Assembly: GCA_964016885.1 (NCBI GenBank)
Contig: OZ024742.1
Location: 34,472,001 to 34,536,000 of the forward strand
Reading direction: 5' to 3'
Source: Eledone cirrhosa
Lineage: Eukaryota
Length of the DNA: 64,000 nt
The position numbers and the translations under genes were made by a program. This document shows, piece after piece, positions 4,496 to 61,341 of the stretch. The notes beneath the pieces are model-generated. The model saw only the letters and a program-made list of their open reading frames with translations. It was not told the origin of the DNA and did not search any database. Position 1 is the first letter of the stretch; every line of letters begins with the position of its first letter.

Positions 4496-4689
4496 CGAAG
4501 GAAATGTGGTAAGGAACCAGGTGGACCATAACGCACCAAAGTACTCAATACTTAGGGTAGTAGAGTGGGTAATAGGAACAAGTAAGACCCCGACGGCTGA
4601 GCTCAAGCCGTTTCGACCCGGTTGGGGTCTTACTTGTTCCTATATATATAATTAACAATTGGTAAAGTAAAGTATATATATATATATAT

Positions 4690-5247
4690 AAATGGAAAAA
4701 ATGAAACGAAATTTCATTTCTCACTCTTAGTACGGCTGTTACTTAAATATAAGTATATATACGTACATATATATATGTATACATACATGCACACATATAA
4801 ATATGTACGTATGGATTTACCGAACATTTATTAAAATTCTCGGTTTGTTTGTAAACAAACATCCCGAATTAAGCCGTACAGTGTTTAGCAACCATCGTTG
4901 CCCTTTGTTCAACACTGACAAAGGAACGATGTACTAGTTTCAAGTTTGTTAGCTATCGTCAACACCGTATACCTTCCTGCCAGATGATTGAACGTCTGAA
5001 AGTATATACTCTCCTTATGCATATTAACGGCTGAGCAGCCTAATTTGCATATCGAGTGAGTTAATCGGCCGGGCGCACCAAAAACGATAAATAGAAAAAA
5101 TGAAACGAAATTTCATTTCTCACTCTTAGTACGGCTGTTACTTAAATATAAGTATGTATACGCACATACATATATGTATACAGACGTACAGTAGTATGTA
5201 TATATATATACATACATGCACATATATATATATATATATACATATAT

Positions 5248-5315
<68 letters not shown>

Positions 5316-10354: not shown

Positions 10355-10980
<626 letters not shown>

Positions 10981-11009
10981 CACACACACTCACATATATA
11001 TATATAGTA

Positions 11010-11363: not shown

Positions 11364-11539
11364 GGAGGTGAGTTTTATTGTAGTACAATAAAGCAATGCA
11401 GATATCGGATAAGAAGCACTCTACAGTTTGTAGGACTGGAGTATACATAATATATAAGATCAAAAGTTATTGCATGATGATATTTGTTTTTGAAATGCGC
11501 ATAATAAAATACATGGAACTCTTTTAACCATCTTTTGAT

Positions 11540-11543
<4 letters not shown>
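11361..11543. mobile_element. Family A fold-back insertion in (TA)n
   Basis: Minus long arm 11361-11466 joined to a plus arm with the 3' half of the HHR (gaaatgcgcata), ending gatctta(TA)n. Confidence 0.7.
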
Positions 11544-11593
<50 letters not shown>

Positions 11594-20277: not shown

Positions 20278-20564
20278 TGAGAGGGAGAGAAGGGGGAGAG
20301 AAAGAGAGAGAGACAGAAAGATGAATAGATAGATAAATAGATAGATATATTTCTTTATTTACCATAAAGGCATAAAAAGAAGGGACAAATACAAAGGGGG
20401 AGTTTACATAAAATCGAGTAAAAAGGGTATAAAATGAAAATAATCGAAAACAACCTCACAAGGGAGGGGACGTGATGGGGGTTGCACACACCCCCGAAAA
20501 AGTGTGCAATCCTTTGCCCGGGGAGCACATGGAGAAGGTGCTCGCCCCTCCTTCACTTCTTTAC

Positions 20565-23500
20565 CTACAGGATGGTATACAGAGAAGGCGCATTTACACG
20601 AGCCATTCTCGCCACTATCACCCACCTTTCATAAAACTGCCTGTGGCCAAGCACCTCTCTCTCCATTCTTATCCTTCTTCCGAAGTGATATCGGAAGAAG
20701 TAGACCAGACTATGGCGAGAGAGGACATTGCCTGACCTCAGACCTTTCAATCGTGTCCACCAAACAACCTCTTTCAACATGGCTATTACGCACAGAAAAA
20801 CCGCCTTTGCTTCCTTTGTGAAGAGGGGAGGCGGCTTGATTGTCATCACGGACTCGGTGGTCAATCGAATCGGCGCCACCCGCGACAGCAGTCGTTCGGC
20901 GTAGCCCCACAGATCAGCCACGCCCGGACATTGCACCAATGCGTGCGCAACGGTTTCTTCGTGACGCACGCATCTAGGGCAAATCTTTTTCGAGGGATCC
21001 CTGCCCGGGCGCCTGTGTCTGTAGAGCCTCTCTCGAACGGGTAGAGCCCCCCGGTAGCACTGCCAGGCTAGTGACTTCTGGAAGTTGTCCATTGGTCCCG
21101 TGCCGAAAGTCCTACCGAACAGGCTGGCCAGTTCGTCCTCTTCCATGTCCAGCGACTCTCCAAGGGTGTCATCGCCCCTGCTAGCCACCAGCCCTCTATA
21201 GAATGATGAGGTGGATTCTCCACCGATGGCCTGGCCCGCTTGCCAGAGAGCCCTGAGCGCCTGGGCACACTCAGTGTGCCAGTCTCCCAGTTTTCCGGAT
21301 CTTTGCTTGACCCAGGACTGCAGCTCGGTGAGCGAGACGAGTCTCGGAAAGGCTCGTTTCACGAACGGAGCCCACTCCGGTTGACCAGTGAGGCATACCT
21401 GTAGGTGCCGTAGCCTTAATGCGTGCCTACGCATCATCAACCACGGCATCCCCAGCCCTCCTTTCGAAGGCTGTTGGCAGCAGATAGATCTTCTCACCAT
21501 AGGAGGGCGCTTCTTCCAAAGAAATTGGAAGAGCATGCGTTCCATGGTGGTGAGTGTTTCCTTAGGGTAAGGCACGACAGTCAGGCGGTAGTAAGTGACG
21601 GACGCTATGTAAATGTTCGCCACCTCCGCCCGGCATTTAGGGACAGTTTACACTTGGCCCATTTCTGGGTTAGTGCAAACACCTTGTTCGTAACTTCGTC
21701 CCAGTTCTTTTCCACCTGGAGGTCCGGTCCAAACCAGACCCCAAGCAACTTCACCGGGCCCTCCGTCCAGTGTCCGACGACACCGTCGGGAGGCATCGGT
21801 CTGCCTCTCCACGTTCCGAGTTGCAGCCCGATGGATTTTTCCCGGTTCAGTTTCGCTCCTGACAACCTTTCGTATTCCTCCAGTAAGGTACCGATCGCCT
21901 CGATCTCCGAGTCGGTTGATACCATTACTGTTTCGTCATCGGCGTAGGCCGACACCGCTTTGCTCAATCCTGGTTCCAGGGGGATACCCTGCAACAACTC
22001 CAACTTCCTCAGTAAAGGCTCGAGAGTCAATACGTACAGAAGGGAGGAGAGAGGGCACCGCTGTCGAATGGATCGTGTGATTTCGAACGGCTTCGAAAGG
22101 TAGCCGTTCACCTTGATCCTAGAACAGATGTGGTTGCTATGTAGGGCAGTGATCCAGCCTCTGAAAACAGGACCGAACCCAGCCGCCGCTAGCACCGCAT
22201 CCAGGTAACCATGGTCGACCCTATTGAAGGCCTTAGACTGATCCAAGTTGATCAGGGCCCCCACCGAAGCCGGGTTTGTTGCCAACCCTCTCTATGATGT
22301 ATCGCATGAGGTGGAGGTTATCGTGAATGGACCTGGATGGGATAGCACATGTCTGCGCATCTCCCACCAGGCCACCCACGACAGGCGCCAACCTCTTTGC
22401 TAACACCTTGGCCAAAATCTTTAACTCTGTGTTTAGCAGGGTTATGGGCCGAAACTTATTTATACTATCCCCCTTGTTCACATCCTTCCTCACCAGCGAG
22501 ACGACGCCCTTGGCTACAGAACAAGGAATTCTCCCGTTCTGCTGCCAATTGCAGTAGACCGCTTCGAGGAGTTCGGAGAAGAAGACCGGCATTGCTAAAT
22601 AAAGTTCGTAAGGTATACCATCAAGACCTGGAGATTTGCGTCTGCTGCATTGGCTCAGCGCATCCCCGATCTCATCAGCCGAGATTGGTCCCTCGCAGGA
22701 CGCTGCCTCTTCGTTCGAGAGACGCGGCATGCCGTCGGGGTATGGACCGAAATTCACGTCCCCGCTCGGACCCTCGCCTCCCCCGAACAATCGGGCAAAG
22801 TGCCTTTGAAAGGCCTTGCACATCTGCTTAGGCTCCCGGATCACCCGTCCATCCTCGTCTTGCAAAGACCGGATGGTGGATCGATTTCCACTCTTAGCTT
22901 CTGTCACGCGGGCCCAGCAAACGGCTTTGGCCCCCTCATTACCTAGAGCACGTATTTTACTTCGAATGACGCAGCCTTCGTGCTTTGCATCGAAAAACTG
23001 ATTCAAGGCCGTCCTCGATGCCAGCACTCTGGCCACATCTTCGCTCTTGATTGCCTCTTCTAATTTACCTGTTAATTCTTTCTCGTTTCTATTCCTATCG
23101 GCAGCTAACATCTTGCTATAACTTATTGATTCTGTTCTAATCTCTCTTTTGAGAAAGGCCCACCATCGGTTGTTGACGATTGCACCCGTCAACCTCTCCT
23201 TAACTAATCTGCTAATCCGGTTTCTGTAAGTCTCTTTTGCCGGTAAAGACAAATTAAGTTTCCAGTAACCGGGACCCTGTTTATGTGTTTTCTCGAGATT
23301 GACTACGCAGGTCACTAATTTGTGATCCGTATAGCCAACCGTGAACATTACTGGACAGCTTAATATGTCCCTATCCTTACTTCTAACTAAGAATCTATCT
23401 AAGTACGATCTAGATTGACCACTGTGGTTCGTCCAAGTCCAGGTTGGCTCAGTTGGAAAATCTAGTCGATATCTATCGACCAAGTTAAAACGGTCGAGTA

Positions 23501-24001
23501 ACCCCTTGAGGCTATTACACCCCCTCTATTAGGACATGCTCCTGTATAGTCCCAACGTGCATCTAGGATGTCATTCCAATCCCCCGCTAGAAGCAGGGAA
23601 CGCAACGTTCCCAGAAAAGTCTCCAAACGCTGGAAGAAGTCGGGCCGTTCAGCTCCGAAAGAGGAGTAGACGGCGACCAGTCTCAAGGCCGCACCTTCAC
23701 TACTGCCAACGTCTAGCACCAACAAACGACCCTCCGGGTCCGAATGAACAACCTGTACGGCGAGACCCAGGTGTTTTTCCAGCAGTACGACAACCCCACC
23801 CCCACCTCCAGGTTGACAGAGAGATGCATGCACCTCAAAGTCATCGAAGGTAGGGGCTAGCTGCCGCACGACGCTGATCCGAGTCTCACAGATAACCATT
23901 ACATTTATACCACGTGACCTGAGGTCATTTAGAAGCTTTGCATGCTTCTAAGTTGAGCCCAGGCCACGTGCATTCAAACATCCTACTCTTAACACATCCA
24001 T
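20565..24001 (-). pseudogene. LINE ORF2 (APE endonuclease, RT, C-terminal CCHC), frameshifted
   Basis: GDWN, SYLDRF, TDHK (APE); KSPGLDG, FRPITLLN, YADD (RT); CPRC-x8-H-x4-C. Split over four ORFs, plus a TGG>TAG stop near 23949. Confidence 0.92.
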
Positions 24002-24034
24002 GTGGGCGGCAAAGCCAAAGGAGAGTGTAGAGAC

Positions 24035-25919
24035 CTACCTTTCTGCTTCCCGGGGTTCGGGTCGCACGACTTCCATGGGATCTGGGGTGTTGGGTGAAGG
24101 GGTGTCTTGTGGTGGTGTGGGGTCGTCAGTGTGTGGTGGGGTTGGGGTATTTGGAGTTGTGTTGGGGAGGGGAAGGGGAGGGGGAAAGCTTTTTAGTAGG
24201 ACTAGGTTTATGGGTTTGACAGAGGGTGGTCCTACGTCCTCCTTAAAATCCTTTTTTAGTTTTTGGTAGAGGTTCATTGGGATCTTTATTAATTTTAAAT
24301 GTGGGTAGTTTTCTGAAGAAACAAAGTTTACACCTTCCGTTTGTTACGAAGGGTTATTTTTTATGAGTTCATTTAATTCATTATTGTTTCTGTTGATGTA
24401 AGTATAGTGTAATGTCTTTTTTTCGGATGGTGTGAGTGTTTCGAAGAGGGGAGGGGCGGGTTTGGTTTTGTTTGTTGCTGGAGGGTTGTTTTGTGTTTTG
24501 TTGGATTATGTTGACATTTGGGTAGGGGTTGTTTGGCCTTGTGTGTTTTGCACATGTTTTCTTTTTTCCTTTTAATCTGTCTGAAGGACTCCGTTTCTTC
24601 CTCCGAATTCGTTGGGTTATCTTCAGTGTTGGAGGGAAGAGGTATGTTTGCTGGTAATGTTTCCGTGTTGGTTTTCTTTGTGAGGGAGATGGATGTCACT
24701 ATGTTAGACTATGTTGTGTCTGCGGTGGTTGTGTTGTTTTATTGAGTGAGGTGTTGGGTGGGACTGTATTTTGTTTTTGGGTAATGTGTTGTGACTGTTT
24801 GTGTTGTGGTGGTGGTGTAGTTTTACTGAGGGACGGGTTGGGTGGGACTGAGTTTTGTTGTTTGTTTATCTGTTGTGGTGGTGGTGGAGCTGGTGTTGGT
24901 AGCAGGGTTTTCTTTTTGTTGAGTTGGGGACAAGCCGCCTTCAGGTGCCCTCTGCCTGCACAGATATGACAGGACGGCCTTCTCCCCTCCACGCTAATGT
25001 TTATATACCCGTGGCCCTCTAATAGGATTCTGTCGGGTATTTGGGCGATGCGTTCAGGCTTCATTTGCACTACAAGTTCTATACCTGTTCCACTGAACGC
25101 ATTGCCTGTGGTTTTCCCAATGGAAATCACGTTGTCATTCGCTGGCTATGAGCCAGCAGTAGTCCACATCTGGCATCATTGCATCCAGCCATATGCGCTG
25201 AGTTCTTTTCCCCATATATGATGGATAAAAGGTAAAATTTGTCGAACGAATCGGTGACAAAGCACATTTTTTTGTCGCCGATTCGTTCTTCATAATAATC
25301 GCTAGGCTTCCATACAGTCTGTCTTTTCTTATGAAAGTGGTTTCATTAAGTACTTCTATAAGTACTGCTTTGATTTCTGTTTGTGTTGGCTGATGAGGTT
25401 TTTTAGAAATGTTGTTGATGGTGCGGAAAACGACCGTTCGACTTTCAATGTCTTTGGTGAGTTCTTGAGGCATTTTTACCGATAAAATACCATTTTCCCA
25501 TTCAGTTATGTATTGTTTGGCGTCTGTAATTCTTTGTGCCACATCTGAAATATTTTCAGGTATATATGTCAAAGATTTCTAGTTGTTTGTGCAAATGAAA
25601 TATTATTGGTGTTGACTTTGTCGTCTGCTTTGCTTTCTGTTATGATGTTGTTTTCAAATGTTATTTTTGTGTTTGTTGTGTCTTTGTTTGTGGTATTAAT
25701 ATTGTCATGCAATTTTTCAAATTTTTTTTTTTCGTTGTTGGAATCAATGTCCAGATTTGTGTTTTCGTCATTTTTCTCCGCAGATTCGTCTGTTTTTATT
25801 TTATTTTTTCTTTCCTTCTCTATGACGTTAGTTGGGAAGGAAGGGGGGACTAAAGCGTGCGAGCTAACAACTCTTACCGCTGTCCCCCCACCACTATTTT
25901 CGTTAGCTTCGTTTAACAT
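24035..25919 (-). pseudogene. LINE ORF1 with zinc knuckle, fragmented
   Basis: CHICAGRGHLKAAC (CX2CX4HX4C) and a Pro/Gln/Thr-rich tail; several frameshifts relative to copy 2. Confidence 0.85.
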
Positions 25920-26423
25920 TTCTCTCAGACGATTGAAATTTTTATGCCACAAAATGTTTAAAACAGGTTTTTCACCCCTGGGAGGGGCAAAGATGAGCTG
26001 CCCCACCGCCTGACAGTTCAGACGGGGGGTCAAACTACACAATAGTATCAAAATTAAAATTGAACTTACAAAATTTCCGCAATAAATTTGAACAAAACTT
26101 CTGCGCGAAGTGTATTACATCTACGCTGTAGAACAGACGACAGCTAGATTGATAGATAAATAGATAGATAGATAGAAAGATAGATGTATTGGTTTCTTAT
26201 ATAGGCACAAGGCCAGCAATTTGGGGAGAGGAGAAAGTCGATGAAATCGAACCCAGTGTGTTACTGGTACTTTACTTTATCGACCCCGTAAGGATGAAAG
26301 GCAAAATTAACATCGGCGGATTTCAACTCAGATCATAAAGGGCCATAACTCTATGCTGCAAAGCTCGGCGTCCGACCCTATACCGATACTGCCATCGAAC
26401 TGATGAAATATATAGAAGAATTG

Positions 26424-29260: not shown

Positions 29261-29357
29261 TCCCAATATCACACATCAATCTAAAACCACTTTTCATATG
29301 TTGATTTAAAACTGCACTATCAACAAGTGTTTTTTTAGCCTTCATATCATGTTCTCC

Positions 29358-29428
29358 TGTTTTATCTGATGAAAACACAAATATTATTGTTTGATGATGT
29401 TTGTTTTTGAAATGCGCATAATAAAATA
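29358..29428 (+). ncRNA. Type I hammerhead ribozyme (family A)
   Basis: tgttttat-CTGATGA-...-GAAA-tgcgca-TA-ataaaata. Confidence 0.85.
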
Positions 29429-29552
29429 TATTGAACTCCTTTAACCATCTTTTGATCTTATATTATGCATACTCCAGTCCCACAAACTGTAGAGTGCTTC
29501 TTATCCGATATCTGCATTGCTTTATTGTACTACAATAAAACTCACCTCCTAC

Positions 29553-29861: not shown

Positions 29862-29934
<73 letters not shown>

Positions 29935-29940
<6 letters not shown>

Positions 29941-31152
29941 AATTAGTATATCCACCAACATATATATACAGATGCATACCTATGCTAGCAAATATATAGG
30001 GTTTGTCTTAGTAACTTTGTGGTTCAATGCAAGGGGATGCAGAACAATTATATGAAAGACGTAAAATAAGAAAATTATAAAAATTAACTCCAACTAATTA
30101 GTTTCTGAAAGGGAATAAACATGGTTTTCGAATGGAAAGCATGGAGAAACCTTTTGTCATCGGGGAGTCTGTTCTCAGCTAAGTTACCAGGCGATGCGTG
30201 GACACAGGGAACTTATACAAGAATAATTCAGTGGATGGAAAAAAGCAAGCGTGGACTAAATTGCAAGACATTGAAAAAATCACTGCCTACTTGGTCGGTG
30301 GCAAATTCAAAAGAATCAATCACGTGACATCGTGGTTAATCAGTGAGGAGTGGGGTGTTAAAAAGACAGTGGCCGAGCCATGACTATAAACTATAGAGTA
30401 GTTTTGGCAAATGTTTGCTCATTAAAATAATTTGGAGATAATTATAAAGAATTAGTATATCTACCAACATATATATACAGATGTATACCTATGCTAGCAA
30501 ATATATAGGTTTTGTCTTAGTAACATTGCGGTTCAATGCAAGGAGATGCAGAACAATTTGCCACCGACCAAGTAGGCAGTGATTTTTTCAATGTCTTTTT
30601 ATAATTTTCTTATTTTACGTCTTTCATATAATGTTTCTACATCCCCTTGCATTGAACCGCAATGTTACTAAGACAAAACCTATATATTTGCTAGCATAGG
30701 TATACATCTGTATATATATGTTGGTAGATATACTAATTCTTTATAATTATCTCCATATTATTTTGTTGAGCAAAAATTTGCCAAACTGCTACTATAGTTC
30801 ATAGTAATGGCTCGGCCACTGTCTTTTTAACACCCACTCCACACTGATTAACCTCGATGTCACGTGATTGATTCTTTTGAATTTGCCACCGACCAAGTAG
30901 GCAGTAATTTTTTTCAATGTCTTGGAACTTAGTCCACGCTTGCTTTTTTCCATCCACTGAATTATTTTTGTATAAGTTCCCTGTGTCCACGCATCACCTG
31001 GTAACTTAGCTGAGAACAGACTTCCTGATGACGAAAGGTTTCTCCATGCTTTCAATTCGGAAACCATGTTTATTCCCTTTCAGAAACTAATTAGTTGGAG
31101 TTAAATTTTAGTAAGTTAATTTTTATAATTTTCTTATTTTACGTCTTTCATA
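29935..31152. mobile_element. Fold-back insertion of a tandem about 510-bp non-coding hammerhead unit
   Basis: ataaagaattagtat at 29935 and 30444 (period 509). The opposite arm repeats tataattttcttattttacgtctttcata at about 30600 and about 31124. HHRs at 31019-31102 (+) and 30086-30169 (-, core CCGATGA). Confidence 0.8.
31019..31102 (+). ncRNA. Type I hammerhead ribozyme
   Basis: gacttc-CTGATGA-c-gaaagg...cctttc-a-GAAAC-taatta-GTT-ggagtt; palindromic stem III. Confidence 0.8.
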
Positions 31153-40120: not shown

Positions 40121-40489
40121 GAAAGTTATATTTAAAATTGTTGGGTTACAACTAGTAAATATTTATAACTGATATAAAAGCACTCGACAAATATTTGGAG
40201 TATATTTACAATATTAAATAAATGGAAACTATATTTATAAAACCATATTTATTTCATTATATATATTTCAGGGATATCATATTAACAATATGCTATGCCT
40301 TCCTCAGACAAAATACAATATAAACAGTCTTATAGATAAATAGATTCGACATACCGTAACAACATCGACTTGCATTTGAAGAGGTTAATTTGGCAGTGAA
40401 AAAAAATTGTACACAGAGAGAAAGAAAGAGAGAAAAAAAAAAGAAAGAAAGACAGAAAGAGGAATTTTGAAAATGACCTGCCAGTTAGA

Positions 40490-42112
40490 TTGATCGCACC
40501 ATCAAAATCGGACCTGGGCAAATTAAGCAAAAACATTCTTGACAGGGTGATACAGCAAATTAAGAACTTGGATTGTTTATCTAACCTGAGCTTGTGGAAG
40601 GGAACTGGAAAGGTTGTTGAGTGGTTTAAGCAAATTAAATATAACAATAATGATAAGTTTATTCAACTTGATATAACTAACTATTATTCTTCTATTACCC
40701 CTAATCTACTAAATAAGGCACTAAATTACGCATTCAAACATACTGACCTAACTAGCAATGAAATGCATATTATATTATCGGCTAGGAAAACTTTGATAGA
40801 ATTTAATGACAAACTATGGCCCAGAGCAGATAGAGATAGCAATTTTGACATAACTATGGGATCATCCGACTCAGCTCAGGTAACTGACCTTGTGGGCTTA
40901 TTTTTAATCAATTCGCTACATAGGAAAATACCTGGTACTACCGGAGGTTTATATAGAGATGACATGCTTTTACTTATTGATAATAATAACCCTGAACTAA
41001 ATAGAAAATGTAAACAAATTACACAATTTTTTAATTACTTTAATCTTAAAATAGAAATTGAGAACAACCATAGAATAGTCAATTTCCTAGATATAACATT
41101 AAATCTCAACACATGTCTTCACTATCCTTTTCACAAGTTGAATGAAAACTTAAACTGTGTCAACTTTAACTCTAACCACCCCAGATCTGTCAAAAACACT
41201 ATAGTAAACTCTGTTCAAAAACGTATCTCTAGGATCTCGTCGAATAGAAAGATTTTCGACGAAAAAGCCCAATACTATAATGAAGCATTAGCTAGAGCAG
41301 GATATGCTGATAAGATTGTGTACATAGATAATGATAGACAAACTAAACAAAGTAACAACTTTTTTAATTACGGCAACAACCTTAACAACTATAATAGAAA
41401 GCATTACAATAATTCCAAAGGACAAAAAAGAAATAGAACTAGGAACATAATTTGGTTTGCCCCCCCTTTCTCACTAAACATTAAAACCCACATCGCTAAA
41501 CTAGTTTTCAAAGCTCTTGATAATCGCTTCCCTAGAACACATAGGTATCACTCAATTTTCAATAGACATACAATAAAATTAACCTACTCATCCACCAAAA
41601 ATTTAGCACAAAATATTAATTGAATAAATAATAGGAACTTAAAACCTAGTGATAATAGCATAAATAATATACAAGTTAACAAATGTAACTGTAGAGATAG
41701 ATCTAAATGTCCGTTAAATAACAACTGTTTAGTTAAAAATATAGTATACAATTGTAATGTTAATACTGACTCTAATTCTTTTAACTACGTCGGTTCCACA
41801 TCGACGGAATTTAAACTTCGCTATAATAACCACAAGAATTCTTTCACAGATCCAAGCAAAAAATCTTCAACGGCACTATCAGGCGTACTCTGGCAACTTA
41901 AGCTAGATAACGTTAGATATTCGACGGCTTGGAATATAGTCTCAAGAGGGATTCCTTTTAATTCATCCTCTGAGACATGTGACCTCTGCGCAGAGGAGAT
42001 ATTCTTTATACTAAAATCTAAAAATTCCCTTAATCTACGGACAAATTTATTCAGTTGCTGCAAACATAGATTAAACTCAACTTTTAAATATAAATTTAAA
42101 TTTAAAATGTAG
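40490..42112 (+). pseudogene. PLE RT plus C-terminal GIY-YIG endonuclease, one in-frame TGA at 41621
   Basis: LDITNYY, ITMGS, LYRDD, NFLDITL. The same frame continues after the TGA: KCNCRDRSKCPLNNNC, IVY...YVGST, RYNNH, CDLCAEE, LN, CCKH, then TAG at 42110-42112. Confidence 0.88.
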
Positions 42113-43480
42113 TATATTTAGTTTGATATATATTTATATGGGAAACTAGCCGATAAATCTTTGATTCCTTCTTTTTATTCTTTTTATTTTTTATTTTTAT
42201 TTTATTTTTATTTAAACATTCCTCATGAAAAATTAAGCTACCCTAAAAGCTGATGCTCCAAATATTTCGAATAAACGTTACACTAGATAAACTTCTATAT
42301 TAAATATAAGAACACATGTAGACCAAATTGGGCATCCTAAACTTTTTGAAATGATCTTTGCTAGATGTGATTTGATAGATAATTTTTGGCTTTATCTGTT
42401 TTTCGACTCTGATGCTTATAATGAACTTGGCAATATATTGTCAATTAATTTTGAAGGGTTGATCTTTGTGGTTTATTTTTATTTTTTATTATTGTAGTAT
42501 TTTCTAATATTTTTATTTTTAATATTTTAATTTTTAATATTTTTAATATGTAAATTTTTTAATATGTAATATTTTTAATATGTAATATTCTTTCGTAATA
42601 TTTTTTTAGTTTTCTATTTTATTATTACTTATTATTATTATTGTTATTTTTTAGTTTTGTTTCTGATATATATTTTTATTAGTATATTGAAATCTGCTCT
42701 CTATTTCTGCTTGATAGATAATCTTGTAGAGTAAAGACAGGAATAATAATACACATATATGTATACTCAAATTTTTATACCACATTGAGAATGTTTTCCG
42801 TGAACCTAGGGTTTGCAGAGTTGATCATGTAGACTCACATGGATGTTTGTAGCTATCACATAAACATATGAATTTTTTTAAAAAACTAAACATAAGATCA
42901 TTAATTTTCACACACTATGGATACTTGTCTCATTCAGGAATACTGATATTTACAATATAGTGGATGTTTTATAAATACTAATACCTCTACATTAAAACAT
43001 AGGGTTTTTACGCCTCGCATATATCTGGTTATTTTTAAATTTTTTCTCTCGCTATATTTTTTTCTCTCTCTATATTTTTTTCTCTCTCTATATATCTCCC
43101 TTACATTAATACTAGAGCTAAATAAATAAATAAATAAATAAATGTATCATTGATACATTTACTCAACAGACCTCCCACTACCTAATTTTCTATATATATA
43201 TGTATCTATCTCTATTTCCTCTCTCTCTATATATATATATATATCTTTCTGTTTCTTTACATGAAGTTCTTCTCTTTATCTATCTTTCCATCTCTCTATT
43301 TTGTTCCATGCATTTCTTCTTTTTCTTCCTTTTCTTCGTTTTCTGTCTTTCTTTCTTTTTTTTCTCTCTTTCTTTCTCTCTGTGTACAATTTTTTTTCAC
43401 TGCCAAATCAACCTCTTCAAATGCAAGTCGATGTTGTTACGGTATGTCGAATCTATTTATCTATAAGACTGTTTATATTG

Positions 43481-43546
43481 TATTTTGTCTGAGGAAGGCA
43501 TAGCATATTGTTAATATGATATCCCTGAAATATATATAATGAAATA
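43481..43546 (+). ncRNA. Type I hammerhead in the PLE 3' terminal repeat
   Basis: tattttgt-CTGAGGA-aggcatagcatatt(gtt)aatatgatatccct-GAAA-tatata-TA-atgaaata. Confidence 0.8.
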
Positions 43547-43583
43547 AATATGGTTTTATAAATATAGTTTCCATTTATTTAAT

Positions 43584-43629
<46 letters not shown>

Positions 43630-44953: not shown

Positions 44954-47029
44954 TTAGGGAGAAGTGTTTAGACGGGGTCCGTATTTGTTAATAAAGTAAG
45001 ATTCCTTGCTGATGCGCTGGGTGTGGGTGGCATTATCTTTAAATTTGTAGAGGGGAAATATTCTGAAGTTGGGATGATTTTGAGCGGCACAGGTATCAAT
45101 GTGTTCACTCAGTGGTATTTTCCTGTATTCCTGTATTTTAATTTGGGATCTATGGACAGTCATGCGTTGGCGGAGGCTGTTTTTGGTCTGGCCTATGTAT
45201 TGTTCTCGACAACCTGAGCAAGTTAATACATATATTAGATTTTCCGATGCACATGTGAAATTGTGTTTTACTATAAAACGTTGTCCTTCTTTGAAATAGA
45301 ATTCCGAACCCTCTATTAGGTTGATGCAAATGCCACAGTTGGGTCTATCGCATTTTATTACTGTGGGTTTCGTTGTTGTGGTTGGCAGTACTTTGGCATG
45401 TGTTAGGATGTTTTTCATTGACTTAGATTGTCTTTTGCTCTTTATGATATCGTGTGTTCGCAGGATTTGGTTCATTCTATGGTCCTTTTTCAACACAGGG
45501 ATGTTCTGGAGGATGGTGTCAAAGGCCTCATTGTTGAGGGGATTGTGTGTGGAGATGTATGGAAGAGCTTTTAGTTTCGGTTGATTTACTTTAGGGTGTC
45601 TAAGGTCCTGGGTACTGAGTTTTAGGGCACGTTGGATTCCATTGTCAATTAGTGATGCAGGATAGTCCCTGTCTATGAGTGTGTCCTTTAGTTCTTGTAG
45701 CCGTAAGTAGCAGGTGTTTTTATTGGAGACTATAGTACAGATTCTCTTTGCTAAGTTGTAGGGAATATTAATTTTAACGTGTCTAGGGTGGCAAGAGTTG
45801 AAAGGAAGATATTGCTTGGAGTCTGTGGGCTTGTAGTATATGTTTGTTTCTATTTTTTTGTTATGGATCTTAATGAGGATGTCGAGGAAGGGGAGTTGTT
45901 GATGGCTGTATTCCATCGTGAAGTTAATATTCGTGTTGAGCCCATTTATAAGGGTGTGAAATTCTTTAAGTTTCTCGATGTTTTCGTGCCAAAGGATGAA
46001 GCAGTCATCTAGATATCGCTTCCAGTTCCTTTCTATGTGTAAGTGGAGAGTGTTTCCAAATTTGTTTAGGACTTTAGTGTAGAGAGTGATTTCCAGGTAT
46101 CCCATGACTAGGTTGCCATAAGTGGGGGCTGTTTTCGTTCCCATAGCGGTCCTAGATTTCTGCCTGTAGGATTTGTTATTGAAAACGAAGTAATTGTTCT
46201 CCAAGATAAATTTGAGTCCCTCTATCACGAATTCTTTTTTGATGCGTTGTGGGAGTTCATTGTGGTAATTATCCAGCCAGAATTGGATAGCTTCTATTCC
46301 TAGGTTGTGAGGGATGTTGGAGTATAGGTTGACTACATCGAACGTCACTAGTAGGGTTTGTTCAGAAAGTGGCATATTAGGGAGGTGATTGAGCATATCT
46401 AGGTCGTCCCTTATATAGCTTTTGATGTGTTTGAGAAAAGGCTTGAGAAGGGTATCAATGAAGTTGCTAAGGCGGTGGGTTTCGCAAGCGGGGCCTGCTA
46501 TTATAGGTCTTAATTTGAGATCATTGGGTGAGGGGACATTGATGACTATGTCTGTGGCTTCCTTGCATGCCTTACTTATTAATTCGCTTTTATGTACTTT
46601 AGGGATACCGTAGAAAAGGGTGGATTTACTTGTGAAGTCTGTGATGAAGCTGAATTCCTTGTTAGTGAGTCCTTCTTTGTATTGGTTGATTAGAGTTTTT
46701 AGGTTTCTCATGATTTTCTGTTGATTGTAGTCTTCAGCCTTTTCGTAGTATGTTTCGTTTTCCAAAGTGGAGAGCGCTAAGTTGATATAGAATTCTGTCT
46801 CCATTAGGACTACTGTACTCCCTTTATCAGCCTCTTTAATTGTAATGGTTCTGTCGGTTTTTAATCTATTTAATTCTTCCCATTCTTTCTTGTTGAGGTT
46901 TGGCTTGTATTTTAGTCTGTGCAAGTGTTGGTAAGGGAAGTTTGTGATGTGTTCACAGAATTCGTCCAGGATTTTAATTCTACCTTTTGATGGGGTGTAA
47001 TTGCTTCTATTTCTGGCTAATGATTCATC

Positions 47030-47032
<3 letters not shown>
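44954..47032 (-). CDS. PLE reverse transcriptase plus GIY-YIG endonuclease (about 690 aa uninterrupted, N-terminus missing)
   Basis: KEADKG, FYGIPKVHK, LRPII, FDVVNLYSNI, TAMG, RYLDD, LPFLD, YYKPTD, CxxxxCxxC linker, LIYVLTCSGCREQYIGQT, R..H, E, LN. The listed ORF's first about 50 aa come from upstream (TA)n and flank. Confidence 0.9.
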
Positions 47033-47112
<80 letters not shown>

Positions 47113-47289
47113 AGAAGCAAAATTTGCTTATTGTGATCCAGTTCTTGGTTAAGAAAGCCAGTTTCATGGATGGTTTCAACGTACGGTTAGGGGTAACTCC
47201 ACAAGTTTGTAAGAATTCCGTTCAATCTTGGAGTATAAAGTATAAAAGAGAAAACACAGGTAAGCATTAAGAGAAGGATTTTATCCAGG

Positions 47290-49268: not shown

Positions 49269-49992
49269 ATGAGTTGTAACAACAACGAAACTAGTTCAAT
49301 ATTCCTTGTCTGGCTTTCTGGAGAATAGAGGAGAGGTGTTTCCTCAAAAACCAGTATGACTCTAAAAACCGGTTTGTCTGTGTGTTTACATACAGAATAG
49401 CTGGCCACTCACAGTAAAGTGACCAGTGAAAAAACTTGGTACACCTACATATGTATACGTGTGTGTATTCATATACATACTAGTATTTCAGTATACATAT
49501 ATGGATGTACATCTTTAACTTAATTGTTTAAGCGTCAGTCATACAAAAGTGAGTTACAAACGAAACGAAATTTAATTTCGTTTCGTTATTTGTTTTTATC
49601 GTCTCCGTTGAACCGGTACTTACTCACACTCTATGCAAATTAGTCTGCCCACTACTAATTTTCATAGAAAAAGCATATAACGATATGTGCTTTTACGATT
49701 CTCTAGAGAGGCCGGAAGATAGGTAAATATTGCTGATGAGTTGTAACAACAACGAAACTAGTTCAATATTCCTTGTCTGGCTTTCTGGAGAATAGAGGAG
49801 AGGTGTTTCCTCAAAAACCAGTATGACTCTAAAAACCGGTTTGTCTGTGTGTTTACATACAGAATAGCTGGCCACTCACAGTAAAGTGACCAGTGAAAAA
49901 ACTTGGTACACCTACATATGTATACGTGTGTGTATTCATATACATACTAGTATTTCAGTATACATATATGGATGTACATCTTTAACTTAATT
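49269..49992 (+). mobile_element. Non-coding tandem unit (467-bp period, about 1.55 copies) with a hammerhead; retrozyme-like
   Basis: 49269-49523 is repeated essentially exactly at 49736-49990; ends in (TA)n. Confidence 0.85.
49726..49770 (+). ncRNA. Minimal type I hammerhead ribozyme
   Basis: aatattg-CTGATGA-gttgt(aaca)acaac-GAAAC-ta-GTT-caatatt; perfect stems I and II, palindromic stem III ACUAGU. Confidence 0.92.
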
Positions 49993-51611: not shown

Positions 51612-52075
<464 letters not shown>

Positions 52076-52551: not shown

Positions 52552-52663
52552 TTGTGATAAAATGAAAACGAAATTTCATTTCTCACTCTTAGTACGGCAC
52601 TTACTTAAATGTAAGTATGTATGTATACGTACATACATATATGTATACAGACGTACAGTAACA

Positions 52664-52709
<46 letters not shown>

Positions 52710-52752
52710 CAGGTACACATACATATATGTACGTATCAGTTTAGAAGGGTAT

Positions 52753-52795
52753 ACGGTGCTGATGATAGCTAAGAAGCTTGAAACTAGTACATCGT
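52753..52795 (+). ncRNA. Minimal type I hammerhead ribozyme (400-bp family)
   Basis: acggtg-CTGATGA-t-agct(aaga)agct-t-GAAAC-ta-GTA-catcgt. Confidence 0.9.
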
Positions 52796-52906
52796 TCCTG
52801 TGTCAGTGTTGAACAAAAAGGTGACGTGGTTGCCTTAACACCGTACGGCATAAATTCAGGCTGTCAGTTTGTTTACAAACGGACAAAGCGGGCGTTATAA
52901 TAAACA

Positions 52907-55102: not shown

Positions 55103-55605
55103 CGCCGTTTATTCTAGGAAAAGCATGGTATAATCCAATGCATCAGCTATGTCGAGTCTGCGCATCTGTAATTATAATTTGGATTGATTTCTATAATTCA
55201 TCATATTTGCAATTTGTTGCTTTATTGAAGTCTTATTTTTATTTTCTTAACCTTTGATGTTCTATTTTGAACTATATATTCAGGTAGTTGATATTGTATT
55301 GGGAGATACAGTCTGTTCGATATGATTCTGTTCTGTAGAAACTACCTCGGGCACTATATATAGATAGAGATAAAATCTAGCTGTCGTCTGTTCTACAGTG
55401 TGGATGTCATTCACTTCGCACAGAAGTTTTGTTCAAATTTATTGAGGAAATTTTGTGAGTTCAAACTTAATTTTGATACAATTGTGTAGCTTGACCCTCC
55501 GTCTGAACTGTCAGGCGGTGGGTCAGCTCATCTTTACCCCTCCTAGAGGTGAAAAACCTGTTTTAAAAAAAATTTTGTGTAAAAAATTTCAATCGTCTAA
55601 CAGAA

Positions 55606-57482
55606 ATGTTAAACGCAGCGAACGAAAATAGTGGTGGGGGGACAGCGGTAAGAGTTGTAAGCTCGCACGCTTTAGTCCTCCCTTCCTTCCCAACTAACGT
55701 CATAGAGAAGGAAGGAAAAATGAAAATAAAAACGGACGAATCTGCGGAGAAAAAATTAAATGACGAAAACAACGAAAAAAAAAAATTTGAAAAATTGCAT
55801 GACAATACTAATAACACAAACAAAGACACAACAAACAAAAAAATAACAGTTGAAAATAACATCATATCAGAAAACAAAGCAGACGACCAGATTTCATTTG
55901 CACAGAAAACAAAGAAATCTTTGACTTATATAGCGGAAAACATTTCAGATGTGGTACGAAGGATCACGGACGCAAAACAATACATAAGTGAAGGTGAGAA
56001 TGGTATTTTATTGGTAAAAATGCCACAAGAATTCACGAAAGACATTGAAAGCCGAACGGTCAAGTTTCGGACCATCAACAACAGTACAAAAAAACCTGAA
56101 CAGCCTTCTCAAGCAGATATCAAAACAGTACTCGCAGAAGTACTGAATGAAACAACTTTCATAAGAAAAGACAGACTGTATGGAAGCCTAGCAATTATCA
56201 TGAAGAACGAATCGGCGGCAAAAAAATGTGCTTTGTCACCGATTCGTTCGAAAAATTTCACCTTTTATCCATCTTATATGGGAAAAAAACTCAACGCATA
56301 TGGCTGGATGCAATGATGCCAGATGTGGACTACTGCTGGCTCATAGCTGGCTTCATCGATCCAGTGAATGACAACGTGATTTCCATTGGGAAAACCACAG
56401 GCAATCCGTTCAGTGGAACAGGTATAGAGCTGGTAGTACAAATGAAGCCTGAACGCATCGCCCAAATACCCGACAGAATCCTATTAGAGGACCACGGGTA
56501 TATAAACATTAGCGTGGAGGGGAGAAGGCCGTCCTGCCATATCTGTGCAGGCAGAGGGCACCTGAAGGCCGCTTGTCCCCAACTCAACAAAAAGAAAACC
56601 CTGCTACCAACACCAGCTCCACCACCACCACCACAACAGATAAACAAACAACAAAACTCAGTCCCACCCAACCCGTCCCTCAGTAACACCACAACACCAC
56701 CACAACACAAACAGTCACAACACATTACCCCAAAACAAAATACAGGCCCACCCAACCTCTCACTCAATAAAACAACACAACCACCGCAGACACAACACAC
56801 AACACAGTCTAACATAGTGACATCCATCTCCCCCACAAAGAAAACCAACACGGAAACATTACCAGCAAACATACCTCTTCCCTCCAACACTGAAGATAAC
56901 CCAACGAATTCGGAGGAAGAAACGGAGTCCTTCAGACAAATTAAAAGGAAAAAAAGAAAACATGTGCAAAACACACAAGGACAAACAACCCCCACCCAAA
57001 TCGCAACACAATCTAACAAAACAGAAAACACCCCTCCAGCAACAAACAAAACCAAACCTGCCCCTCCCCTCTTCGAAACACTCACACCATCGGAAAAAAA
57101 GACATTACACTATACTTACATCAACAGAAACAATAATAAATTAAATGAACTCATATACAATAATCCTTCGGTACAAACCGAAGGTGTAAACTTTGTTTCA
57201 TCAGAAAACCACCCACATTTAAAACTAATAAAAATCCCAATGAACCTCTACCAAAAACTAAAAAAGGATTTTAAGGAGGACGTAGGACCACCCTCTGTCA
57301 AACCCATAAACCGCGTCCTACTAAAAAGCTTTCCCCCTCCCCTTCCCCTCCCCAACACAACTCCAAACACCCCAACCCCACCACACACCGACGACCCCAC
57401 ACCACCACAAGACACCCCTTCACCCAACACCCCCGACCCCATGGAAGTCGTGCAACCCGAACCCCGGGAAGCGGAAAGGTAG
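55606..57482 (+). pseudogene. LINE ORF1 (zinc knuckle), one frameshift in an A-run near 56285
   Basis: Two overlapping ORFs (55606-56316 and 56226-57482); CHICAGRGHLKAAC. Confidence 0.88.
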
Positions 57483-57515
57483 GTCTCTACACTCTCCTTT
57501 GGCTCTGCCGCCCAC

Positions 57516-60500
57516 ATGGATGTGTTAAGAGTAGGATGTTTGAATGCACGTGGCCTGGGCTCAACTTGGAAGCAAGCAAAGCTTCTAAATGACCTCAGGT
57601 CATGTAGTATAAATGTAATGGTTATCTGTGAGACTCGAATCAGCGTCGTGCGGCAGCTGGCCCCCACCTTCGATGACTTTGAGGTGCATGCATCTCTCTG
57701 TCAACCTGGAGGTGGGGGTGGGGTTGTCGTGCTGCTGCAAAAACACCTGGGTCTTGCCGTACAGGTTGTGCACTCGGACCCGGAGGGTCGTTTGTTGGTG
57801 CTAGACGTTGGCAGTAGTGAAAGTGCGGCCTTGAGACTGGTCGCCGTCTACTCCCCTTTCGGAGCTGAACGGCCCGACTTCTTCCAGCGTTTGGAGACTT
57901 TTCTGGGAACGTCGCGTTCCCTGCTTCTAGCGGGGGATTGGAATGACATCCTAGATGCACGTTGGGACTATGCAGGAGCATGTCCTAATAGAGGGGGGTG
58001 TAACAGCCTCAAGGGGTTACTCGACCGTTTTAACTTGGTCGATAGATATCGACTAGATTTTCCAACTGTGCCTACCTGGACTTGGAGAAACCACAGTGGT
58101 CAATCTAGATCGTACTTAGATAGATTCTTAGTTAGAAGTAAGGATAGGGACATATTAAGCTGTCCAGAAATGCGCACGGTTGGCTACACGGATCACAAAT
58201 TAGTGACCTGCGTGGTCAATCTCGAGAAAACACATAGACAGGGTCCCGGTTACTGGAAACTTAATTTGTCTTTACCGGCAAAAGAGACTTACAGAAACCG
58301 GATTAGCAGATTAGTTAAGGAGAGGTTGACGGGTGCAATCGTCAACAACCGATGGTGGGCATCTCTCAAAAGAGAGATTAGAACAGAATCAATAAGTTAT
58401 AGCAAGATGTTAGCTGCCAATAGGAATAGAAACGAGAAAGAATTAACAGGTAAATTAGAAGAGGCAATCAAGAGCGAAGATGTGGCCAGAGTGCTGGCAT
58501 CGAGGACGGCCTTGAACCAGTTTTTCGATGCAAAGCATGAAGGCTCTAGGTAATGAGGGGGCCAAAGCCGTTGGATGGGCCCGCGTGACAGAAGCTAAAA
58601 GTGGAAATCGATCCACCATCCGGTCGTTGCAAGACGAAGATGGACGAGTGATCCGGGAGCCTAAGCAGATGTGCGAGGCCTTTCAAAAGCACTTTGCCCG
58701 ATTGTTCGGGGGAGGCGAGGGTCCGGGCCGGGGCGTGGATTTCGGTCCATACCTCGACGGCCTGCCGCGTCTCTCGAACAAAGAGGCAGAGTCCTGCGAG
58801 GGACCAATCTCGGCTGATGAGATCGGAGATGCGCTGAGCCAATGCAGCAGACGCAAATCTCCAGGTCTCGATGGTATACCTTACGAACTTTATTTAGCAA
58901 TGCCGGTCTTCTTCTCCGAACTCCTCGAAGCGGTCTACTGCAATTGGCGGCAGAACGGGAGAATTCCTTGTTCTGTAGCCAAGGGCGTAGTCACGCTGGT
59001 GAGGAAGGACGAGAAAAAGGGGGATAGTATAAATAATTTTCGGCCCATAACCCTGCTAAACACAGAGTTAAAGATTTTGGCCAAGGTGTTAGCAAAGAGG
59101 TTGGCGCTTGTCGTGGGTGGCCTGGTGGGAGATGCGCAGACATGTGCTATCCCATCCAGGTCCATTCACGATAACCTCCACCTCATGCGATACATCATAG
59201 AGAGGGTTGGCAACAAACCCGGCTTCGGTGGGGCCCTGATCAACTTGGATCAGTCTAAGGCCTTCGATAGGGTCGACCATGGTTACCTGGATGCGGTGCT
59301 AGCGGCGGCTGGGTTCGGTCCTGTTTTCAGAGGCTGGATCACTGCCCTACATAGCAACCACATCTGTTCTAGGATCAAGGTGAACGGCTACCTTTCGAAG
59401 CCGTTCGAAATCACACGATCCATTCGACAGGGGTGCCCTCTCTCCTCCCTTCTGTACGTATTGACTCTCGAGCCTTTACTGAGGAAGTTGGAGTTGTTGC
59501 AGGGTATCCCCCTGGAACCAGGATTGAGCAAAGCGGTGTCGGCCTACGCCGATGACGTAACAGTAATGGTATCAACCGACTCGGAGATCGAGGCGATCGG
59601 TACCCTACTGGAGGAGTACGAAAGGTTGTCAGGAGCGAAACTGAACCGGGAAAAATCCATCGGGCTGCAACTCGGAACGTGGAGAGGCAAACCGATGCCT
59701 CCTGACGGTGTCGTCGGACACTGGACGGAAGGCCCGGTAAAGTTGCTTGGGGTCTGGTTTGGACCGGACCTCCAGGTGGAAAAGAACTGGAACGAGGTTA
59801 CGAACAAGGTGTTTGCACTAACCCAGAAATGGGCCAAGTGTAAGCTGTCCCTAAAAGGCCGGGCGGAGGTGGCGAACATTTACATAGCGTCCGTCACTTA
59901 CTACCGCCTGACTGTCGTGCCTTGCCCTAAGGAAACACTCACCACCATGGAACGCATGCTCTTCCAATTTCTTTGGAAGAAGCGTCCTCCTATGGTGAGA
60001 AGATCCATCTGCTGCCACCAACCTTCGAAAGGAGGACTGGGGATGCCGTGGTTGATGATGCGTAGGCACGCATTAAGGCTACGGCACCTACAGGTATTCC
60101 TCACTGGTCAACCGGTGTGGGCTCCGTTCGTGAAACGAGCCTTTCCGAGACTCGTCTCACTCACCGAGCTACAGTCCTGGGTCAAGCAAAGATCCGGAAA
60201 ACTGGGAGACTGGCACACTGAGTGTGCTCAGGCGCTCAGGGCTCTCTGGCAAGCGGGCCGGGCCATCGGTGGAGAATCCACCTCATCATTCTATAGAGGG
60301 CTGGTGGCTAGCAGGGGCGATGACACCCTTGGAGAGTCGCTGGACATGGAAGAAGACGAACTGGCCAGCCTGTTCGGTAGGACTTTCGGCCCAGGACCAA
60401 TGGACAACTTCCAGAAGTCACTGGCCTGGCAGTGCTACCGAGGGGTTCTACCCGTTCGAGAGAGGCTCTACAGACACGGGCGCCCGGGCAGGGATCCCTC

Positions 60501-60927
60501 AAAAAAGATTTGCCCTAGATGCGTGCGTCACGAAGAAACCGTGGCGCACGCATTGGTGCAATGTCCTGGCGTGGCTGATCTGTGGGGCTACGCCGAACAA
60601 ATGCTGTCGCGGGTAGCGCCGATTAAATTGACCGCCGAGTCCGTGATGACAATCAAACCGCCTCCCCTCTTCACAAAGGAAGCAAAGGCGGTTTTTCTGT
60701 GCGTAATAGCCATGTTGAAAGAGGTTGTTTGGTGGACACGATTGAAAGGTCTGAGGTCAGGCAACTTCCTCTCTGGCCATAGTCTGGTCTACTTCTTCCG
60801 ATATCACTTCGGAAGAAGGATAAGAATGGAGAGAGAGGTGCTTGGCCACAGGCAGTTTTATGAAAGGTGGGTGATAGTGGCGAGAATGGCTCGTGTAAAT
60901 GGGCCTTCTCTGTATACCATCCTGTAG
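57516..60927 (+). pseudogene. LINE ORF2 (APE-RT-CCHC), one frameshift from a 26-bp deletion near 58546
   Basis: LNARGL, ICET, GDWN, TDHK; LDQSKAFD, QGCPLS, YADD; CPRC..H..C. Confidence 0.93.
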
Positions 60928-61341
60928 GTAAAGAAGTAAAGGAGAGGGGAGCACCTTCTCCATGTGCTCCCCGGGCAAAGGATTGCACACTTTTTCGGGG
61001 GTGTGTGCAACCCCCATCACGTCCCCTCCCTTTTGAGGTTATTTTCGATTATTTTCATGTTACACCCTTTTTACTCGATTATATGTAAACTCCCCCTTTG
61101 TATTTGTCCCTTCTTTTTATGCCTTTATGGTAAATAAAGAAATCTATATATAGATAGAGATATAAACTCAACGTGTACTACGTTTGTGGCAGACGCTGTA
61201 TCTGTGCGTGTTCGCGTGCATCGCTGATCATGAGTCGTGAAATTCAAGTCTATTGACCAATTTAATATTGAGTCTGTCACAGTCTCTAACAACAAGCACT
61301 TCGTTAGACAAGTAACCATAGGGATATATATATATATATAT

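Follow-up and report, generated by a model that had tools for sequence, protein, structure and literature searches.

The hammerhead-bearing units found in Eledone cirrhosa are best explained as non-coding retrozymes that carry internal promoter motifs of host small-RNA genes and that insert with ends of the Penelope pattern, a reading to which we give a probability of about 0.72. The window analysed was a stretch of 64,000 nucleotides of contig OZ024742.1 (assembly GCA_964016885.1, forward-strand positions 34,472,001 to 34,536,000) from a microsatellite-rich genome of 3.0 Gb. An initial annotation of this window had proposed that three retrozyme-like families share one promoter cassette, made of three motifs at fixed spacing upstream of the ribozyme. 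Comparison of the copies indicates that the cassette is two separate things, motifs 2 and 3 being promoter-like and motif 1 belonging to a Penelope-type tail. At the level of sequence, promoter-matching motifs, hammerhead anatomy, whole-unit copying and two fixed insertion ends were demonstrated.

Families A, B and C have copies in the window, and family D is represented at G000:C3:79485835-79486358 (loci L291/L292). The unit measures 467 bp in A, about 466–500 bp in B, 324 bp in C and 425 bp in D; no ORF of 150 aa is present inside these units, and their arrays are dispersed over many contigs. All four families have a hammerhead core with helix I and helix II pairing, and an older A subfamily contains a compensatory change in helix II. 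The family A hammerhead was matched by the Rfam model HH9 at 49715–49786 with 37.7 bits and an E value of 6e-6, below the gathering threshold of 52. With one type I hammerhead per unit and short, non-coding, tandem units that are dispersed, families A–D have the features of retrozymes. The Rfam scan of the window was dominated by microsatellite matches to miRNA models and gave one hammerhead among the best 150 of 208 matches, and the repeat search of the window was dominated by a trinucleotide array. Family A gave 233 matches in 37 scored candidates, many of them 100% identical and arranged in tandem and inverted (head-to-head) arrays, and is very young. A private variant was common to both arms in two loci and another to all 11 units of one array, which is indirectly compatible with a single template. 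Some family A arrays were mosaics of two subfamilies or had period-2 variant patterns (L216, L219, L265), hinting at template switching or dimeric templates.

The family A insertion occupies 49269–49992 on the forward strand and comprises 1.55 copies of the 467-bp unit, with its 3' end at the inner of two fixed sites, Y, where it runs into (TA)n. Within it lie, on the same strand, a Penelope-type tail between the fixed ends (49526–49599) with a T5 run and with motif 1 as a hairpin (49562–49571); the octamer-containing 12-mer that constitutes motif 2 (49632–49643), which is identical to the host U6/tRNA-Sec element and forms a 5' hairpin arm; a TATA-like box (motif 3, 49674–49680); a predicted transcription start at T|AG (49704–49706; A at position 49705) that lies 73 bp beyond the start of the 12-mer; and a type I hammerhead (49726–49770) with a short palindromic helix III and a predicted cut after 49763. 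Family C is present as an inverted arm on the reverse strand (10518–10619), terminating at the outer fixed site, X, and a forward arm of the 324-bp unit (10649–10982) terminating at site Y. The forward arm contains motif 1 at 10682, a decayed 12-mer (10735–10746), a TATA sequence from 10779, a predicted start at 10809 and a hammerhead at 10828–10873. The family B copy on the reverse strand (4688–5260) terminates at site X and contains motif 1 at 5119 and 4720, the 12-mer (5051–5040), TCAGC (5034–5030), a TATA sequence from 5008, a predicted start at 4978 and a damaged hammerhead core (4962–4932). A second, head-to-head family B insertion (52559–52890) with an intact forward-strand core (52759–52789) had been missed by the initial annotation. 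Family D has three tandem octamer-like repeats upstream of the TATA sequence, and its tail resembles that of family C. Family B and C arms were found joined in a single insertion (L175) and adjacent in another locus (L169), which suggests a shared mobilising enzyme or a shared target.

Further elements were observed in the window. A 5.8-kb LINE-like element with endonuclease and RT-like frames is present twice, at 20341–26150 and 55374–61151, the copies lying in opposite orientation with 94% identity. Copies at 1018–1185, 11461–11546, 29296–29464 and 51815–51982 belong to a further dispersed family, inserted in (TA)n, in which a hammerhead-like motif has decayed; it has a palindromic helix III and no 12-mer. 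A hammerhead-like family of about 530 bp (29921–31140, both orientations) is without the octamer and was not counted as a cassette carrier. It had been described as a 510-bp family with a weaker match to motif 2; 19 of 20 copies read CTTGGAATTTAG at this position, four mismatches from the 12-mer, and the previously quoted cttgcaatttag is a variant in one window copy, with the quoted TATAAG belonging to the other, inverted copy.

The three motifs and the hammerhead core were confirmed in the window at the positions and distances first assigned to them. Motif 1 starts at 10682, 49562 and 5119 (reverse strand) and motif 2 at 10735, 49632 and 5051 (reverse strand); motif 3 starts at 10777, 49672 and 5010 (reverse strand), 42, 40 and 41 bp past motif 2, and the hammerhead cores at 10835, 49733 and 4962 (reverse strand), 58, 61 and 48 bp past motif 3. 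In the core at 4962, C3 is changed to T; the sister copy at 52759 is intact. The shared motifs are above chance, since motif 2 with TATA gave 30,806 genome matches (some places counted twice) against 672 in a reversed control, and 98 of the 100 matches listed belonged by eye to family A, B or C. The claim that the units cannot be aligned did not hold for the copies at 49.6 kb and 5.0 kb, which align by blastn with 68% identity over 212 bp (E 3e-13; body z 10). A and B are sister families, homologous along their length, and so do not count as independent cases, which leaves fewer than three independent families. The octamer had been reported in two of the three families. All three have it, the 10.7-kb copy being a decayed member of family C, other copies of which read TATGCAAATGAG at the 12-mer.

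The arms of families A, B and C end preferentially at two sites. Counted without duplicated loci, the window itself, locus-edge ends and B matches consisting only of (TA)n, and with the X and Y windows drawn after the data had been viewed, 43 of 48 ends in A (where the sites make up 3.4% of the unit), 14 of 25 in B and 44 of 56 in C fell at these sites, and nearly all such ends run into (TA)n. Among 43 head-to-head pairs, 26 combined X with Y, 17 had one other end, and none was X with X or Y with Y. Loose ends into (AT)n in a public run (X1), which may be of the source sample, lie at 49530 and 49599, the same two sites. Motif 1 is located between X and Y, and the tails of A and B measure 59–74 nt. 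In Penelope elements the tail is the stretch between two internal reverse-transcription starts, as described in two reports (PMC11167929; PMC8557442). The region of motif 1, which had been placed within the promoter, is on this comparison a Penelope-type tail or insertion signal rather than a promoter element, and its supposedly fixed spacing does not hold: it starts 53, 70 and 68 bp from motif 2 in the window and 151 bp from it in family D. As the insertion ends follow the Penelope pattern, the units are likely to be copied by a Penelope enzyme.

An autonomous Penelope-like element of a young family lies in the window (ORF with RT and GIY-YIG, 44954–47221, reverse strand) and is without the cassette. 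Many intact 784-aa frames of this family are present in the genome, and it has two fixed 3' ends of its own (14 short and 15 long of 30) bounding a 39–40 nt tail (L382-L421). No hammerhead core was detected by pattern near its ends, no 12-mer belonging to it was found in the 10 loci that were extended, and its tail, the one autonomous tail aligned, had no significant similarity to those of A–D; with this one young Penelope family examined, an autonomous partner of A–D was not found. A second, broken Penelope-like element (40132–43590, forward strand) has an inverted end and a minimal hammerhead-like motif at 43489 and is likewise without the cassette; it gave no Pfam match and was assigned from motifs and layout. 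The other Penelope-type hammerhead ends that were checked did not carry the cassette.

Promoters of the host small-RNA genes were compared with motifs 2 and 3. The 12-mer TATGCAAAT(T/G)AG, with 0–1 mismatch, was found at -77 to -80 in 7/7 promoters of the U6 class, with TATA at -30/-31; these were three U6 types, U6atac, RNase MRP and two tRNA-Sec genes, picked by score and intactness. The 12-mer was present at 22 of 30 U6 loci, with six interrupted and two without it; among 12 U6atac loci it is confined to the best one. It was not found within two mismatches upstream of U1/U2 (0/9, being five U1 and four U2) or U5 (0/7). Since U1, U2 and U5 are without it, the 12-mer was not taken to be a proximal element of snRNA genes in general. 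Instead, TCAGT or a one-mismatch form occurs at -55 to -58 in 15/15 scored U1/U2/U5 upstreams. The host U3 genes have a variant 12-mer (1–3 mismatches) at -72 to -75 with a TATA offset of 41–43 in 7/12 distinct upstreams, the other five being low-scoring copies, and TCATT or TCATA at -54 to -57 in 5/5. By eye, a CTCCCTT-like word was seen near -260 upstream of U1, U2 and U6, and no sequence like motif 1 was seen upstream of the host genes inspected. As a by-product, the elements of the host U6-class promoters have been mapped.

Other features of these host genes were noted. The U1, U2 and U5 genes occur in tandem arrays with TATA-like boxes near -30 (L234-L263, L061-L090, L347-L366), unlike the vertebrate U1/U2/U5 pattern, which is TATA-less. 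One U3 gene ends in a T7 run, and most are without the U1/U2/U5 3' box (L367-L377). The single RNase P RNA gene (L314; G000:C24:12936134-12936474) is without the U6-class 12-mer and ends in a T9 run; its upstream region resembles that of U1/U2, with AATCAGT, TATA and a distal CTCCCT, and the gene possibly has a Pol II-type promoter.

In sequence, in orientation and in spacing alike, motifs 2 and 3 of the retrozymes match promoters of the host U3/U6 class. Measured from the 12-mer start to TATA, the distance is 47–49 bp in the U6 class and 42–44 bp in A–D, so that the spacing of these young families matches the U3 class and is 4–5 bp shorter than in the U6 class. The spacing of about 41 bp first proposed holds in the three window copies (40–42 bp between motif starts) but not more widely, counts from the 12-mer start to TATA being 42–44 bp in young and about 48 bp in old families. 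A Y|AG sequence lies at offsets of 73, 73, 74 and 75 in A–D, and host U3 transcripts start at 72–75. The earlier proposal of an upstream-type promoter is supported for motifs 2 and 3 and not for motif 1. No single host promoter shared significant identity with the spacer between 12-mer and TATA. At the position of the host U1/U2/U5 element, TCAGT is exact in D, has one mismatch in B and two mismatches in A and C, where the word is poor (CCACT and TCACC respectively). The host 3' box pattern had no match in A, B or C, and its sole match in D overlaps the 12-mer.

The distribution of the motifs was examined by a blind search for the 12-mer with a hammerhead core, in which the main families were avoided and TATA was not required. 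This gave 64 matches against 0 in the control; 50 of the 64 were retrieved, and the 14 left out resembled A–D. Those retrieved consisted of family D, variants of A and of C, a group of three, nine singletons and two old families, of 14 and 11 matches. TATA was present at an offset of 46–50 in 18/37 matches outside A–D, compared with a mean of 0.63 and a maximum of 5 in 1000 shuffles, and TCAG at offset 22 in 17/37. Because 25 of these 37 matches come from the two old families, and because A and B are relatives, the number of independent cases is small. The old families have the U6 spacing (about 48 bp) and the young families that of U3; in all, the promoter motifs are carried by six families or more, divided between two spacing classes. 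When the search was begun from RF00163, the 30 top loci (L091-L120) all came from one abundant family, whose inverted arms lie in (TA)n, and the cassette was found in 0/30 of these and in 0/20 copies of the ~530-bp family.

The class of polymerase is the point on which the main reading divides. Both the 12-mer and the composition of the transcript hint at Pol III: in the predicted transcribed bodies of A–D there are 0 runs of T4 or longer compared with 7 runs of A4 or longer, giving a sign test of about 0.016 for families that are not independent and of which no single one is significant. The promoter may accordingly be a true Pol III type-3 promoter with the T-run of motif 1 acting as a leaky terminator, so that most RNA would be short and linear and only read-through RNA would make circles. 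The presence of the 12-mer in 7/7 Pol III-class promoters and in no U1/U2/U5 promoter, the exact U6 spacing of the old families and, in A and C, an outer end X that falls at the T-run or inside it are all consistent with this. The T-run itself is harder to accommodate. Host Pol III genes end in T5–T10, and runs of this kind (T5 in 42/43 A units, T7–8 in 6/9 B units) are copied inside arrays, including arrays of more than 10 units; family B, moreover, ends 5–8 nt beyond its T-run. These in-array copies, the TCAG word and the newt precedent discussed below point to Pol II. We regard the Pol III version as a tentative minority share of the main reading, and in the young families a Pol II-type read-through would be slightly favoured over it.

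Conservation of the motifs bears on whether they act at present. Each of the six pairings of A–D gives an alignment of the 55-bp cassette, with z of 4.9–13.4 (the alignment is anchored on the 12-mer, so z is partly built in), and the adjacent stretch just downstream aligns in none (z -0.8 to 2.1), in agreement with motifs that are more conserved than their flank. Between two subfamilies of A there are 44 differences at shared sites, 0 of them in the cassette (5.2 expected) and 1 in the tail (7.0 expected); two of the loci compared had been found through the motif, and the unselected positions 13–41 alone give P 0.06. In four public contig runs the 18 variant sites listed avoid the cassette, which is not significant (about 0.1); the head-to-tail joint in these runs also occurs in genomic arrays and shows no circle. 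The motifs could nevertheless be a relic, one ancestral retrozyme having captured a promoter and today's copies being transcribed by read-through from neighbours. Common descent is likely, as A and B are homologous and C and D have a tail in common; one 11-unit array carries a changed 12-mer, and the ~530-bp family spreads without any. Such a relic is nonetheless unlikely given the persistence of the 12-mer and TATA where adjacent sequence has no detectable similarity, the agreement of each of the two spacing classes with one class of host promoter, and the sparing of the motifs during recent subfamily divergence.

Selection on RNA structure was considered as an alternative source of this conservation, with hairpins or protein sites on a circular RNA being maintained and the promoter likeness arising by chance in an AT-rich genome. 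In the predicted folds each motif is part of a stem, and the units are highly self-paired, with a predicted fold of z -6.8 to -7.8 for whole units as circles. The cassette lies within strong hairpins (z -2.3 to -3.9), and structure must therefore also constrain it. Motif 2 had been said to open an inverted repeat, and the 12-mer is indeed the 5' arm of a predicted hairpin, paired in A–C. Its stem contains a compensatory T-A to G-C change between A and C, yet the T/G alternative at this position is the T/G alternative of the host promoters. The predicted pairing partner lies downstream in A–C, upstream in D and variably in the old families, while the 12-mer is unchanged, and TATA at a host-like distance is not expected by chance. 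Conservation at the RNA level only is accordingly judged improbable. The full cassette of the initial annotation, with motifs 1–3 as one fixed-spacing promoter of unrelated families, keeps its order and 40–42 bp spacing in three window copies but is very improbable given that motif 1 lies 53–151 bp away and marks insertion ends, that no such motif was seen by eye upstream of host genes, that A and B are related and that there are two spacing classes.

Under the preferred reading of retrozymes with an internal promoter and Penelope-type ends, the 12-mer and TATA are likely to direct transcription that begins shortly before the ribozyme. Initiation by host small-RNA transcription factors would take place at Y|AG, some 30 nt past TATA, and the polymerase would read through the tail into the next unit. 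Two hammerheads would then cut out a monomer containing the promoter of the next unit, and this monomer would be circularised, as in the known retrozyme family. A Penelope RT-endonuclease may nick (TA)n on both strands and begin copying at the two sites on either side of the tail; with reverse transcription rolling from a pair of nicks, tandem arrays would arise, and also head-to-head arms of which one ends at X and the other at Y. The unit is tandem and copied whole with its promoter, as had been proposed, and by such a scheme each new unit would arrive with promoter, ribozyme and tail. A bolder extension, which is possible but doubtful, is that these are three-part parasites, with a host promoter captured in the unit, a hammerhead and a Penelope tail, in which U6 geometry was retuned to that of U3 and the polymerase possibly switched. 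Lying inside the unit, the promoter would survive copying. If the three-part description were true, factor-binding sites of this lineage would outnumber host promoters by tens of thousands, and the switch of polymerase might let the RNA read through the T-rich tail.

The promoter of newt satellite 2 reportedly combines an octamer with proximal elements, and that of the Schistosoma hammerhead satellite is said to be tRNA-like and internal, in contrast to the upstream-type motifs found here. The absence of any known promoter module in animal retrozymes, suggested in the initial annotation, must be given up in general, because an snRNA-type promoter, cited as Pol II, was described in 1994 for newt satellite 2, the founding animal hammerhead repeat (as cited in PMC2220036). 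Like that satellite, families A–D are hammerhead tandem repeats with an internal snRNA-type promoter; unlike it, as far as that text describes it, they have a TATA box, match the host classes U3 and U6, and form part of at least six families. The Schistosoma satellite is similar in being a hammerhead repeat with its own internal promoter, of the Pol III type (Ferbeyre et al., 1998, as cited in PMC2220036).

Penelope-like elements, as described by Frangieh et al. (2024; PMC11167929) and Craig et al. (2021; PMC8557442), share with A–D two internal RT starts that bound a tail, partial tandems, AT-rich or (TA)n targets, an inverted 5'-truncated arm and a tail on one end only. Families A–D differ from them in having no ORF and, in A and B, tails of 59–74 nt rather than 30–40 nt, and from the autonomous Penelope families checked in this genome in carrying the cassette. 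Li, Clavereau and Pollet (bioRxiv 10.64898/2026.07.22.740005, July 2026) propose that retrozymes are non-autonomous Penelope derivatives; there the same conclusion is argued from co-occurrence and similarity to a Xenopus pLTR, and the main text contains none of the words promoter, tail, octamer and TATA. The tail footprint constitutes direct genomic support for Penelope mobilisation that is independent of this phylogenetic argument.

In the open-access articles and preprint main texts searched, no host-matched U3/U6-type promoter across retrozyme families was found, nor any promoter of an animal retrozyme other than the newt one, nor, within the same limits, tail signatures in retrozymes or these elements in cephalopods; PMC13282606, PMC2837043 and PMC6309819 add nothing further. 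The closest known system is the metazoan non-LTR retrozymes, for which Penelope elements are strong candidate mobilisers (Cervera and de la Pena, 2020; PMC7229834). Families A–D are the same in that their tandem units are non-coding and contain a single type I hammerhead, and their short palindromic helix III is like the amphibian forms of that report, whose available text names no promoter, its two uses of the word referring to T7. The units of A, B and D (425–500 bp) exceed the 170–400 nt range given there, and circular RNA was shown for those retrozymes, whereas the present families are known from genome sequence alone. Where the available text of the defining papers leaves the transcription of animal retrozymes open and calls the mechanism of insertion unresolved, the families described here provide base-level predictions for both, namely a named Y|AG start, promoter motifs that can be mutated, and two reverse-transcription starts flanking motif 1.
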